From assembly GCA_030324005.1 (NCBI GenBank), contig JARDVH010000025.1, forward strand, positions 74,293,676 to 74,357,675: a stretch of DNA of 64,000 nucleotides. Reading direction: 5' to 3'. The translations under genes and the position numbers were made by a program. The notes beneath the pieces were generated by a model. The model did no database searches and was not told the origin of the DNA. It worked only from the letters and a program-made list of their open reading frames with translations. The DNA comes from Negaprion brevirostris (taxonomy: Eukaryota). Shown piece by piece: positions 1,059 through 60,493 of this stretch. Numbering within the stretch: position 1 is the stretch's first letter; the number at the start of each line of letters is the position of its first letter.

Positions 1059-1118
1059 ATGATGCCGTCCAATACCAACACAAACTCTGCCCTGGAAGAA
1101 GGAGTTGAGACACAGATG
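1059..1118 (+). CDS. DNMT3A: DNA (cytosine-5)-methyltransferase 3A, first coding exon (MMPSNTNTNSALEEGVETQM)
   Basis: 60 nt from ATG to the donor ATG|gtaagg at 1119, phase 0; joins in frame to exon 60416-60493; MMPS start resembles the DNMT3A1 start (human MPAMPSS, also a short phase-0 first coding exon, recalled). Confidence 0.7.
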
Positions 1119-1199: not shown

Positions 1200-2000
1200 T
1201 GGGCAGGAGCGGGACTCGATCTCGCCAGTTCCCGGCCACATTCTCTGTGTGTCAGTGATTCCCCCTTCTTGTGCTGCTGCAGCTGCTGCCCGGGCTCGGG
1301 CTCTGCCCGGGTTCTTTCCGGGCTCGGGCTCTGCCTGAGTTCTATCCGGGCTCGGGCTCTGCCCGGGTTCTATCCGGGCTCGGGTTCTGTCCCGGCCCGG
1401 GTTCTATCCGGGCTCCATCCGGGCCCGGGTTGTCAGCTTATGTCTCTGGGATCTTGCTGCTCGCGGCCCCTTTGCTTTTGCAGCTGAGCTGATTTGCGGT
1501 GCATTGTGGGATTGTCGCATAGCGCAAGCAAAAGTCAGCAAACTTTCAACCCTCTGCACACACAGGGGACAGCTCCGCAAATCCTCCCGCAAACCCCGCC
1601 CCACATACTGCACAGCGCCCGCAATCCCCGTCCCGCCAGTAATCCGCCAGCCCCGCCCAGCTCCCGCAAACCCCGCCTCCGCAATAACCGCCCAACCCCC
1701 CAGTCCGCAAATCCCCGAATAGCTCCGCCCCGGCCAGTCCGCAAACAGCCAACCGCAATCCCAGTCCCGTACAGTCTGCAAACGTAATCCGCACAATCCC
1801 CGTCCAGCCCCGCACAGCGCCAACATTCCCACCCACGCAATTGCTGCCCGCACAATCCCCGCATCCTCGCCGTCAAAATCCCGCCCGCGCTGCCGCTCAT
1901 TTCCCGCCTGTGGCCTCTTCTTTCTTTTCCAAAATTAGATTTTTCGCCATTTCGCAACCCCATGTCCCTCTCTGCTGACAAACACCGCCCGCGCTGCATC
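1200..2000. promoter_or_regulatory. CpG island just downstream of the first coding exon, including a degenerate CCGCA-rich repeat (about 1570-1890)
   Basis: Very high C+G and CpG density against the AT-rich background; CCCGCA/TCCGCA motifs recur many times. Confidence 0.75.
1290..1431. repeat. GC-rich minisatellite, 28-bp unit CCGGGCTCGGGCTCTGCCCGGGTTCTAT, about 4.5 copies
   Basis: Units start at 1290, 1318, 1346 and 1374 (expanded unit), followed by a degenerate partial unit. Confidence 0.9.
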
Positions 2001-33424: not shown

Positions 33425-33978
33425 AAAGAACAAAGAAAATTACAGCACAGGAACAGGCCCTTTGGCCTACCAAGTCTGCACCGACCGTGCTGTCGGACTT
33501 AACAAAAACCCCTTGCCCTTCCAGGGACCATATCCCTCTATTCCCATCCTATTCATGTGTGTATCAAGACACCCCTTAAAAGTCACTACCTTATCCACTT
33601 CCATTACCTCCCTCGGCAATTAGTTCCAGGCACCCACTACTGTCTGTGTAAAAAATCTGCCTCGAACATCTCTTTTAAACCTTGCCCTTCGCATATTAAA
33701 CCTGTGCCCCCTAGTAATTGACCCCTCTACACTGGGGAAAGCTTCTGACTATCCACTCTCTCCATGCCTCTCATAATCTTGGAGACTTCTGTCAGGTTGC
33801 CCCTCAACCTCCATCGTTCCAGTGAGAACAAACCAAGTTTCTCCAAACTCTCCTCACAGCTAATGCCCTCTGTACCAGGCAACATTCTGGTAAATCTTTT
33901 TTGTACCCTCTCCAAAGCCTCCACATCTTTCTGGTAGTGTGGCTACCAGAATTGAACACTATATTCAAAGTGCAGTCT
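33425..33978 (-). mobile_element. CR1 LINE 3' end
   Basis: EALERVQKRFTRMLPG...LEKLGLFSLERWRLRGNLTEVSKIMRG. Confidence 0.92.
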
Positions 33979-51022: not shown

Positions 51023-52971
51023 AAAGTGGTTGACTCTCAACTGCCCTCCAAGGGTAAATAGGGATTGGCAATAAATGCTGGTCAGCCAGCAATGCCAATG
51101 AATGAATAAAAATCAAATTTGCCTTTCACAGTGTTGTGAAAGCCCTTACTTAGCCACTCAACAGCACGCATAACTTTGGCTGCAAACAAATGCAGTTTGT
51201 GTGTCGTGTGCATTGGAAGCAGTGTTGCTCAGGTAATCCCACAATGTATTTCCCACAACTAATTTTAGGGGCCAAGGTTGTTTATTTGGGATTGGAAATG
51301 CATTTCAATTCATGACTAGCCACAATTTTTCAGGAATGCCTCCACGTTCCCAACTCTGCAGCATTCTCCTCTGGTCTTTCTGTGCATTGGGAATGCCTAG
51401 GGCTGAATCTCCTTCTGGGCTTGAAAACCTGACCTGCTCACTTTTGCAGCTTATAAGCTACACATCTGACCCGTGTTTGATTGCGCCAGTTTTGTCTTTT
51501 CACACTGAAGTTAGGTTTACTCTGCGGTTTGCTGGAGCGCATAGGGAGTGTGGGTGTGGAGGCAGGTTGGTTAGAAGTCCTGCCTCTGCCATCACAGTAT
51601 CCCAGTTCCCAAAAATTTTTAAAGGCTGCTTAACTTTTACACATGCTTCCACCCATCCCTGATGCCAGCTCATGCTCCCTTAGATCACTCATGCCTCCCA
51701 CACATTCTCCATGCTCCCTCAGATCACTGATATCATCCTATGACACCTCTCTGCTGCCTATATAACCTCCATAGCCACCCCCCAATATGCACCATATTAA
51801 TGAAAAAGAGAGACTGTCTATGAATGTAACAGACCAGGTGGTTAGATTTTTCAAGTGTAGAGTTTTGTTTTTCAAATCTGATTTTTTTTTAAATCAGCAA
51901 GAAAAATCACAACACAAAAGGTAGCAGCACATGTTGACAGGACCTTTTGTAGTAATTTTCATTGTGTTATGGAACTTTCTCCATTGGGAAAGCACTGTAA
52001 TCCATCTGAACAAACACAACTTCCTAGTTAGTGTAAGGATCAATTTACCATTAAAGGACAGTTCCTGAGGATGAATCACTGCATTTAAACACATGTGCAG
52101 TATATTACAGCACCTAATAGTGACATTTCAGAATGCTCCAGACTTAGCAAACTGTTCATTTTTTTTCACAAGCTCTCGTGCTTTGGGCTTCCGCAATCCA
52201 GAAAATCCATTTTTTTTCCTTTGTTATCGTAGTGGTCCACTGTAGCAACGACAAGTTTATTGTTTAAAAAGTGTCTTCTGGTCTCAGAATAAACAAATAA
52301 GTGCAAATAAATGAACAGTGTGAAAATAAACCTATATAACAATGGATTCTTTCAGATCCATCTTGAAGTATTTTCTCTAAAGACATTTGTGTGGTTCTAA
52401 CGTAGCTGATGTTACTGAAAAAACACAACATATTTGTACAAAATGATTCTTGTTGCATCATCTTTTTCTGAACCTGTAAACCAATTTAAAGCCACCAAAA
52501 TCTGTCAGAACAGAAGAACTTTGAGAATGATTGTTTTGGTTATAAGATTGAGGATTTATTTTGAAGAGTTGATTTGACTTCATTCACACTCATATCCAGA
52601 TCTATTTGGGTTAGCTCCAATGCTGGCTTCAATTTTATGTCAACTAACAAAGTAACAATCTTATGAATACTGGGCAACTTGATTGTCATGTAATGATTAC
52701 TAAAGTCAAAACCCACTTGTTTAAGAGAGTTTACCTTGTATACCTTGTGTATTCAGACAGTGCATATCGAGCTGCAGAGAAAGTGTGTGTATTTTTAGCA
52801 GCTGAATGCCACAGGTGAATTATACTCATTTTGGTCGAACAAAGAACAGAATGCACAGGAACAGGTCCTTCAGTCTACCAAGCCTGCACCAACACATGAT
52901 GTCTTGAAAAACTAAAGACCTTTTGCTTCCACGCAGTCCACATGCCCCTATCCCTGCCTATTCATTTATCT

Positions 52972-53184
52972 AGTAAAAAGTCTGACAACACCAGGTTTAA
53001 GTCCAACCAATTTATTTGATAGTACACTCACTAGATTTCGGGTTAGTTATTCACCTGACGAAGGAACTAACCCGAAAGCTAGTGAGTCTACTATCAAATA
53101 AATCGGTTGGACTTAAACCTGGTGTTGTCAGACTTTTTACAGTGTTTACCCCAGTCCAACGCTGGTATATCCACATCATGACTA
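52972..53184 (+). mobile_element. Penelope-like mini-insertion with 76-bp inverted arms and a 14-bp TSD
   Basis: TSD CTATTCATTTATCT at 52958-52971 and 53185-53198; arms 52973-53048 and 53065-53140 are complementary at 73 of 76 positions. Confidence 0.85.
53050..53086 (+). ncRNA. Minimal type I hammerhead ribozyme motif (Penelope-associated)
   Basis: Stem I TCAC (53051-54) pairs with GTGA (53082-85); core CTGACGA (53055-61); stem II GG/CC; GAAA (53074-77); palindromic stem III AGCT; predicted cleavage after A53081. Confidence 0.65.
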
Positions 53185-56100
53185 CTATTCATTTATCTGT
53201 CAAGATGCCTCTTAAACATTGCCATTGTATTTGCTTCTACCACCTCCTTTGACAGCGCATTCCAGGCACTTACCACACATTCAGTTTAAAAAAAACTTGC
53301 CTCACACATCTCCTTTAAACTTCCTCCTTAAACCTATGTTCCCTTGTAATTGATATTGCTACCCTGGGAAAAAGACTCCGAATATTCATTCTATCCATGC
53401 CTCTGATGATTTTGTAAATTTTATCAGGCCGCCCTCAGCCTCTGATCTTCAAGTGAATACAAGCAAAGTTTGTCCAACTTCTCCTCATAGCTAACACCTT
53501 CCAAACCTTTTCTGTACTCCCTCCAAAGTCTAAACACCCTTATGATAGTGTGGTGATCAGAACTGTATGCAGTATTCCAAATTTGGCCTAACTAAAGTTC
53601 TATACAGTTGCACATGACTTGCTAATTTTTACATCTGTGCCCTGAATGATGAAGGCAAGCAATCCATATCCCTTCTTGACCACCATGTCTACTTGTGTTG
53701 CCACATTCAGGGAACTGTGAAACTAAATGCCTAGTGTATAATGGTTAAATGAAAAGAATGACTTCATTTGACTTACGGCCATTATATTTTAGAATTAATT
53801 TTCAGACTTTTCAGTAACGATAAGGAGCTTTGAATACCAATATGACAATACAAAATGCCAGTGCACACTGCTCTTGATTTTTCAGTTATTCCTCCAAAAG
53901 GTTGGAAAATCGAGTACCATGAGGCAAAATTTCTAATTGCTAGTAAGACTTCTCCCTGAACGCACAATGCCAGAAAATGAATACTTTCAGCCAAATAGCT
54001 GGGTGTTTGCATTCCATTCTGAGGAAGGTCTGAACTAAGTGTCAAACTACACAAAAAGATGTGCAAATGTCATACTTCAACACCGTGAAATTTGGAGTAA
54101 AGATGATCTTTCGTCTGCCCAAGCTATTTGCACACACAAATAATGCATGCAAGGATTGAATCCAAATATTATTGCCTCAGTGAAATGTAGCAGCAAAAAA
54201 ATGCAAATTATTGCACATTGAATTTGCAGCATTCTGTTGTTCAATACTGCAGGTTATGTGCAACTACACTGTGGTAAAGGAGATGATGTTTCAGGTCAAA
54301 GTTAGGCACCATCTGAATCAGCATCTGAGGCCTGATGTGATAAATGCAGAATTTTTCCCACTCCCTATTGACAAAAAAAAACTTCAACACAGAATAAATT
54401 CACCATTGATCTATTTGGCTGTGAGAGTTGAACACGTGCAAATTGTATTGATGTCATTTAACACTTCAAAACAAATTGTTTTTCACTCATGCTTTGAAAA
54501 TCTCTCTCAACACAGAGGTTCCTTTCTTTGGAATTGTGGGAAGACATGTAAATTTTCAGCCTTGTTGCTGGGGTTTCTTTAAAGGACATTACAGTGAACC
54601 CATTGCTAAAGGATTTGTTTAACACTTTGAAGTAGCAATGTATTCAGTGTAGTTAATTGGAATTTATCAAACTAATAAGCATGTAATCATTGCAAAAGTT
54701 TTGCAAAAATGCTCTCTGATATAATTTTTTTGTTCAAGTTTTCTTTGGTTGTAATATTTGGTCAAATATTAATTTCCATATGTTATTAAATGTGGCCTTT
54801 TCTCATTGTGTGCAGTAAAGGGTTTTTGATAAGCATGCAAAATGTAACCATTATGTACCTTTGTGGAACTGTCAGAGAGTAATGTCAATGTCTGATGGTG
54901 TTATAACCTTGTATTTCTTTAAATGTAGAAAAATTTTATTGACCATCAAATTTTTCAGACCATTGTTGAAACAAAGAAAATAGGAGCAGAGTAGGCCATT
55001 TGGCCCCTAAAGCCTGCTCTGTCATTCATTATGATCATTCATCATTATGCCTGTAGTTACAACTGGATTGTGCCCTGTGGTGTCCCCCAGCCCCACTAGA
55101 CCTTGCAGGGTTAGTGGGAGATCAGTCAAACACTTTGGATTCCTCAATAATACCTATCTGCCCATACCTGCTTGAACCCTATGCCATGATTCTCTAATTC
55201 CAGTCATGGTCATACTGCTTCTTTGCACAATTGGGCTTATTGATGATTGTTTTAAAAAAAAAATCAGATCCCACTCATGGACATCCACTCTCTCAGCATA
55301 TTGTGAACATTATAAGTCAAGATCCTGTCTGAGACAAAGGAATGTGAACAACTAGCTTAGGGAGACCATGCCATGCCTTTTTCGTGACCATTGCTATGTA
55401 AGGGGCAGACAAAGATTTTGTCCCTTTTATAAGGCACTCCAAACAATATGGCAAAAATCTAATACAATGGGTCTCCAGTCTTCCTGAGGCCTCCAGTGGG
55501 GCCTCCACTGATCTCTGCCTGAGGAATCTGCGGGACAGTGTATCTAGTTACCGCAATGGCCTCCTTCCAAAATGTAGGCAGAAGTACGTCCATGCACAAT
55601 GCATTTATTTATTATTGCTAGATTTGTGAACTTTCAGGCTGTCATGCAATTATATTCTACTTGTGTGACTTTACATAGCTAATTACTGTTGTCTTGCTGT
55701 CATTTATAGGAAATTGTTAATTTTTTTTTAAGATTTGAAGAAACTCCTTAGCAAACAAATATGAAACGAAGCCTAACAGCATGTTTATTAAAAAAACAGT
55801 ATTTAATGAATGATAAGCCATCAGAAACATGTGTGAAATGTAAAATAGATGTAGTTTTAATAAGATATTGTGGAATGAAAGTGAAAGATAACAGTTGGTC
55901 CTTTCAAGGACTATATTAAAGTAATTTCATCTAATCTAGAACCAGTTTGCCCACATAGCAACTATGATTGTCTTGGAAAATAATTATTGTGAAATGCGTC
56001 TGAGTGATTGGGTGCCATATAATTACAAATCTTTTGCAGGTTGTAATTTCTTCGTGTGCACGTACAACGATTGACTAGAAATGCTGGGTTTCTTTCATTT

Positions 56101-60415: not shown

Positions 60416-60493
60416 AATGATGAGCAGCCAGAGAAAAATAGAAACAAGGAGAAAAGACGAGGCAGGCCAGGGAGAAAACGCAAGCAAACAATG
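60416..60493 (+). CDS. DNMT3A: DNMT3A second coding exon (NDEQPEKNRNKEKRRGRPGRKRKQTM)
   Basis: Acceptor ccttgtttttatgatacag, donor ATG|gtaagc, 78 nt, phase 0/0; GRPGRKRK matches the recalled human DNMT3A1 KVGRPGRKRKHPP, which also lies at the end of a phase-0 exon. Missed by the ORF track. Confidence 0.85.

Follow-up and report, generated by a model that had tools for sequence, protein, structure and literature searches.

The 213-bp insert within the 64,000-nucleotide stretch of shark DNA analysed here (the window) is likely a very short head-to-head pLTR insertion that was made on site by two separate reverse-transcription starts, and was not derived from a master hairpin. On the basis of its sequence relationships, the insert is assigned to the pLTR of a Penelope-like element (PLE) of the Penelope/Poseidon type that encodes a reverse transcriptase (RT) and an endonuclease. 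The features to which we refer below are as follows.

1059..1118, plus strand: first DNMT3A coding exon found, upstream of the insertion (match to shark protein)
52837..53565, minus strand: remnant of an old LINE (C-terminal part of ORF2 with the 3' end), split by the insertion (alignment of the joined flanks)
52958..52971, no strand: left copy of the TSD, 14 bp (exact repeat)
52972..53048, minus strand: inverted 5'-truncated pLTR arm, tail-less, running from end-point A, some 37 nt before the ORF ATG (about -37), to about -111
53049..53184, plus strand: 5'-truncated pLTR arm in direct orientation, from about -129 to +7, comprising the hammerhead, the 5' UTR, the tail and the opening bases of the ORF
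53051..53085, plus strand: putative minimal type I hammerhead (sequence motif, comparison of 113 copies, folding)
53141..53177, plus strand: one-sided PLE "tail" of about 37 nt between end-points A and B (hairpin survey; PMC8557442 and PMC11167929)
53178..53189, plus strand: start of the element ORF, M-T-T-I; the ORF runs on into RT in copies L063 and L068
53185..53198, no strand: right copy of the TSD (exact repeat)
60416..60493, plus strand: next DNMT3A coding exon, downstream of the insertion (match to shark protein)

The two TSD copies, identical at 14 of 14 positions, bracket an insert in which hairpin arms of 76 nt each (52973-53048 and 53065-53140) flank a 16-nt loop and are mismatched at 3 of 76 positions (53009, 53025 and 53035). 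A folding energy of -129.5 kcal/mol (z = -21) was calculated for the hairpin, and none of 200 shuffled sequences was equally stable. Relative to the ATG at 53178, the plus-oriented part of the insert spans -129 to +7 and is collinear with copies L063, L068 and L045, while the inverted part spans -37 to -111 and extends beyond the ribozyme cut site. The last 4-5 bases of the ORF-start stretch are at the same time the first bases of the TSD, that is, a microhomology at the junction. Each structural element listed in the preliminary description (the 213-bp insert, the 14-bp TSD, the 76-bp arms with three mismatches, the 16-nt loop and the hammerhead core) was found in the sequence.

Matches to shark DNMT3A proteins from the database identified DNMT3A as the host gene, with coding exons at 1059-1118 and 60416-60493 on the plus strand and later exons, also on the plus strand, up to C25:74.80 Mb, so that the gene spans approximately 0.5 Mb. 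Short DNMT3A motifs gave no exon within the window. The insert is thus located in the 59-kb intron that separates the two most upstream coding exons found, with the ribozyme in sense orientation as originally proposed. For both DNMT3A and the element proteins, the top database matches were from sharks and rays. When the flanks of the insert were joined with one TSD copy, they aligned without a break across the insertion site to a paralogous LINE near window positions 33430-33950 (68% over 538 columns, E 2e-43), and their minus-strand translation gives the C-terminus of a LINE ORF2. An insertion into a LINE had been proposed, and this alignment bears it out; judging by its motifs, the interrupted LINE is probably CR1-like.

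The Penelope-like origin with an inverted partial pLTR, likewise part of the preliminary description, gained support from links to RT and endonuclease sequences in related copies. The right end of the insert is prolonged in other copies as M-T-T-I-D-T-A-N (30 of the 35 pattern matches examined), and the ATG at 53178 corresponds to that of an ORF which aligns to P0015 in L063, L068 and L072; in L063, the ORF, lying in three frames, aligns to P0015 residues 1-450 with an E value of 1.8e-118. P0015 is an 881-residue RT protein (Pfam RVT_1, E 3.8e-10). Its last 75-90 residues (aa 790-880) were found in L092 and L095, where they end approximately 220 nt upstream of the hammerhead, and this C-terminus aligns to P0032, a Pfam GIY-YIG protein (32%, E 2e-15). 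The Pfam search of P0015 did not detect the GIY-YIG domain directly, and a Pfam scan of six broken frames of L063 and L076 gave no meaningful match. An intact full-length element in a single frame was not found in this gapped assembly, and RT and endonuclease are tied to the pLTR via separate broken copies. Taken as a whole, the family displays the structural features of endonuclease-bearing (EN+) PLEs, with an RT ORF at the pLTR junction and a C-terminal endonuclease upstream of the 3' pLTR, as well as the insertion layout of this group, with an inverted 5'-truncated pLTR, a one-sided tail and a TSD. The "Poseidon type" label, as opposed to Neptune or others, is presumed from the domain order.

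The insert is one of a very large class. We obtained at least 2733 candidate genomic matches, of which 40 were scored; the exact 33-base tail occurs 779 times (0 for the control), and a second pattern identified 392 hairpins whose two arms lie close to the ribozyme (again 0 for the control). Among the first 100 of the 779 exact tail matches, 42 were flanked by an exact TSD of 11-16 bp (12-13 bp in 25 of these), and in 29 of these 42 TSD-flanked inserts an inverted arm at site A comes first. In 55 of the 100 copies the tail arm runs into an assembly gap at its inner end, and the resolved copies are therefore biased to short or diverged ones. The 25 gap-free inserts were 34-302 bp long. One copy, L209, lies in a tandem repeat, which makes its insert length uncertain. 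The inner end-points differed in all 25 gap-free inserts and none matched those of the window copy; similarly, the centres were all different in the first 50 of the 392 long-arm hairpins, the window copy included. In these 50 hairpins the tail was on one side in 43, on both sides in none, and was not seen in seven. Loose ends also recurred at 52972 and 53140 in four sequencing runs. The outer ends are fixed at two sites and the centres are free.

These counts bear directly on the proposal that the insert is a non-autonomous, MITE- or SINE-like hairpin that is transcribed and reinserted whole, with an antisense arm that silences its own ribozyme. The abundance of the copies and the uniformity of their outer ends are as this proposal would have them, and the arm does prevent the ribozyme fold; the other copies with the same ends for which the preliminary description had asked are present in thousands. 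No centre was shared by any two sampled copies, which argues against a unit that is copied as a whole hairpin. A complete core was absent from 20 of the 25 gap-free inserts, and in 43 long-arm hairpins it lay in the tail arm in 10, in the tail-less arm in 17 and in neither in 16. Furthermore, in a set of 30 copies chosen by their sequence on the 5' side of the ribozyme, the end is at site A in 23, five have the tail and two are cut off; since the fixed ends are seen here too, they are those of the parent element. The unique junctions largely refute a mobile hairpin, which we now regard as very unlikely, and the variable position and frequent absence of the core do not support the idea that the arm exists to silence its own ribozyme.

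In the favored reading, that of two separate starts, we infer the nicking, priming and joining steps as follows. The element endonuclease would nick both target strands with a stagger of 14 nt. One nicked strand would then prime at RNA site B, at the ORF start, aided by the 4-5 nt of microhomology, and the other would prime at site A, approximately 37 nt upstream of site B. Both cDNAs would copy through an uncut hammerhead and stop early, and their joining centre to centre would yield the inverted arms; the ~37 nt separating the two starts would constitute the one-sided tail. Microhomology with the TSD is a property of the class: it averages 1.6 nt over the right ends of 42 inserts and 2.0 nt over the left ends of 29 inserts, compared with about 0.3 nt by chance, and it is 4-5 nt in the window copy.

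An inverted 5'-truncated copy with a one-sided tail has been described in PMC8557442 and PMC3846280, and variable inverted termini were reported for Drosophila (PMC2377424). Self-priming on an antisense template is the origin proposed instead in PMC3846280, and a single priming at site B, followed by fold-back of the cDNA (or self-priming by an antisense transcript) and copying out to site A, would account for source alleles common to both arms. In the 20 gap-free inserts with two arms, however, the arm that reached further 5' was the tail-less one in 13 and the tail arm in five, with two equal, and a longer tail-less arm is not obtainable by fold-back copying of the tail arm without later loss; most copies would thus need later central deletions. 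Site A is also an independent end-point, and the loops are often asymmetric and hold sequence unique to one arm. We therefore consider fold-back copying unlikely.

Comparison of alleles between the two arms gave a largely concordant picture. At site -65 the arms agreed in 29 of 29 copies, as against 43% expected, and at four diagnostic columns they were discordant in 2, 5, 3 and 4 of 36 copies, as against approximately 50%; at a CpG, 10-11 of 36 were discordant. Concordance was lower near the ribozyme (12/16 and 12/15), and the stem II variants differ between the two arms of L015, L233 and L234. It should be noted that assembly collapse or later conversion between arms may have inflated the concordance. 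The stems vary in reach, from 7 nt short of the cut to 27 nt beyond it. They exceed the cut site by at least 3 nt in 37 of 47 copies, and in four the distance to it is no more than 1 nt, counts that leave out one copy with N and two without a scorable cut site. Arm ends did not accumulate at the cut in these 47, and this spread indicates that the 5' ends are not set by cleavage. A jump between templates precisely at the cut was also considered as a rule and rejected, because in most long-arm copies the two arms have the same type of stem II, and discordance also occurs at a site 3' of the cut.

The closest parallel to two separate starts comes from Poseidon_Ac of the green anole, for which PMC11167929 reports that both target strands are cut and extended, that the main template is uncleaved RNA and that insertion is independent of ribozyme cleavage. 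As in the shark stubs, two adjacent RT starts bound the tail. The anole starts lie 111-118 nt inside the ORF, whereas those of the shark lie at about -37 and at 0 to +12; the anole ribozyme overlaps the start codon, whereas the predicted shark cut precedes the ATG by 96 nt; and the short target microhomology of the shark stubs contrasts with the lack of RNA-target homology in the in vitro assays described in that text. Together, the stubs may constitute an in vivo record of a Penelope enzyme for which both nicked strands serve as primers, at two fixed sites on uncleaved RNA and with a few bases of target microhomology, with an arm-discordant minority that arises as if a dimeric enzyme had used two RNAs or two different pLTRs; in our estimate, this broader proposal is evenly balanced between right and wrong.

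The hammerhead core at 53051-53085 was recognized by its motif elements, as the preliminary description had it: a 4-bp stem I, CUGACGA, an extra A after A9, a G10.1-C11.1 pair, GAAA and a palindromic helix III, together with the required U16.1-H17, for a predicted cut after 53081. That description had looked to Rfam hammerhead models for support, which was not forthcoming: a scan of 52000-54500 gave seven matches at E values up to 10, none to a hammerhead family, so that the identification is motif-based and has no covariance-model support. Among the Rfam matches were miRNA models, far below gathering scores, which reflect a generic hairpin likeness. In a comparison of 113 copies, whose search pattern had fixed part of the core, the extra A was present in 110 and U16.1 in 111; the 10.1-11.1 pair was G-C in 88 and G-U in 19, and the 10.2-11.2 pair was G-C in 71 and A-U in 28. 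Stem II is 3-5 bp in the typical family member and at least 3 bp in 93 of the 113 copies. In the window copy it is 2 bp, a length found in no other of the 29 copies that share its loop type.

When the full insert was folded in silico, G12 (53074) and positions 53080-53085 were paired to the left arm with a probability of ~1.0, and the probability of stem I fell to 6e-22. Since the left arm pairs the 3' half of the core, the hairpin and ribozyme folds are predicted to be mutually exclusive, a point on which the earlier reading holds. Without the left arm, however, the probability of stem I was still just 0.04. A single minimal hammerhead motif gave no detectable cleavage in vitro (PMC4209133), and the anole hammerhead did not cleave without the element protein (PMC11167929). 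The inactivity of lone minimal motifs, the 2-bp stem II and the poor folding in the absence of the arm suggest that the left arm is probably not needed to silence the ribozyme. The arms are mirror copies and hence every pair that reaches past the cut site masks it; masking is probably a by-product and not a design.

We also considered that the copy has been retained in DNMT3A because the arm keeps the pre-mRNA from cleaving itself, or because editing or dicing of the stem tunes the gene. A survey of this one gene (507 kb) revealed eight pLTR clusters and three cores, of which the sole sense-strand core is the masked one and the other two are antisense, and retrozymes are depleted in Xenopus introns according to a 2026 preprint (10.64898/2026.07.22.740005). 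In addition, the left junction is present in sequencing runs of related organisms: contigs from three runs, with flanks 1-3% different, cross a junction with 23-28 element bases, which falls below the bar of 31 element bases set for a junction-crossing contig, and no empty site in relatives was seen among the joints listed from four runs. These data hint that the insertion is shared with relatives and fixed. Three cores are nonetheless insufficient to show a bias, the arms have drifted at 3 of 76 positions with no compensation seen, and the same properties that make a lone core weak (inactivity in vitro, a need for the element protein in the anole, the 2-bp stem II and the low probability of stem I without the arm) count against a cleavage from which the pre-mRNA would have to be shielded. 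We consider retention for either reason very unlikely. Processing of any 76-bp intronic stem by ADAR or Dicer is plausible in principle. The window copy itself is probably dead intronic DNA that carries a weak, lone ribozyme.

Among known systems, Pen2a_Av and other EN+ PLE insertions (PMC3846280; PMC8557442, Fig. 2) resemble the insert in their head-to-head inverted pLTR and one-sided tail (30-40 bp in those elements), in a pLTR that reaches the first ORF codons, and in TSDs of approximately 9-14 bp, 5' truncation and microhomology joins. The shark insert differs in that both halves are shorter than 140 nt and the body of the ORF is gone, and such stubs are very numerous in the shark genome. 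The minimal type I hammerheads of metazoan PLEs (PMC4209133) have the same core, short stem I, extra base between 9 and 10.1, G10.1-C11.1 pair and palindromic helix III, as well as a high variety of stem II; stem II is 7-8 bp in Schistosoma, compared with the 3-5 bp of the shark family and the 2 bp of the window copy. That paper also records hammerheads that occur in pairs, one on each strand, with a separation of 100-700 bp. Non-LTR retrozymes (PMC7229834; 10.64898/2026.07.22.740005) are likewise short, non-coding and PLE-derived and bear a type I hammerhead, but they are head-to-tail tandem units with at least two ribozymes. The insert is a single head-to-head unit with one core, and no second sense core is present in 507 kb; we therefore rejected a retrozyme identity.

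The layout, the tail, the two start sites and the minimal ribozyme have all been published already, and the layout of inverted pLTR plus tail has been in print since at least 2013. In our literature search, no paper dealt specifically with these shark stubs, nor with the fate of shark intronic hairpins (editing or dicing). As a single locus, the insert carries little weight, being one among thousands of dead Penelope stubs. As a class, the stubs fit the two-start priming model demonstrated in vitro for the anole element, and they argue against fold-back copying and against ribozyme cleavage as the process that defines the 5' ends. They also supply the shark genome with many long intronic hairpins. 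If the stubs are indeed a record of two-site priming, a census of arm lengths and arm alleles would bear on the origin of the inverted pLTR and tail, which the literature has called undefined.

The DNMT3A gene that hosts the 213-bp hairpin spans about 0.5 Mb of the shark genome (G000; C25 is contig JARDVH010000025.1), and another of its introns holds a further head-to-head Penelope insertion, which is older and longer and matches the reference at 72-74%:

G000:C25:74294734-74798401, DNMT3A
G000:C25:74582743-74583609, older Penelope insertion

The first two DNMT3A coding exons found are separated by a 59-kb intron, and a GC-rich short tandem repeat (window positions 1260-1440) lies shortly after the first. 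Two more DNMT3-like loci were found on C121 and C45.

Comparison of 113 hammerhead copies showed that the same 5' UTR and tail are common to many subfamilies, and that stem II is strongly variable with compensatory changes, pair 10.2-11.2 being G-C in 71 copies and A-U in 28. Among the first 100 of 779 tail matches, 55 loci were interrupted at the hairpin centre by an assembly gap; long-armed copies are therefore undercounted in short-read assemblies.

Some centres of related copies elsewhere in the genome (L125, L148, L184 and L204) contained additional pieces, namely the ribozyme 5' half re-copied in short tandem, a second piece of tail, unrelated DNA, or a switch to pLTR sequence farther upstream, which suggests template jumps at the join. 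At three other centres (L015, L233 and L234) the two arms of one insertion bore different stem II variants, with N17 also unlike in L015 and L233, and alleles nearer the priming sites were common to both arms. These arm differences possibly reflect two RNA templates, or two pLTRs, per event.
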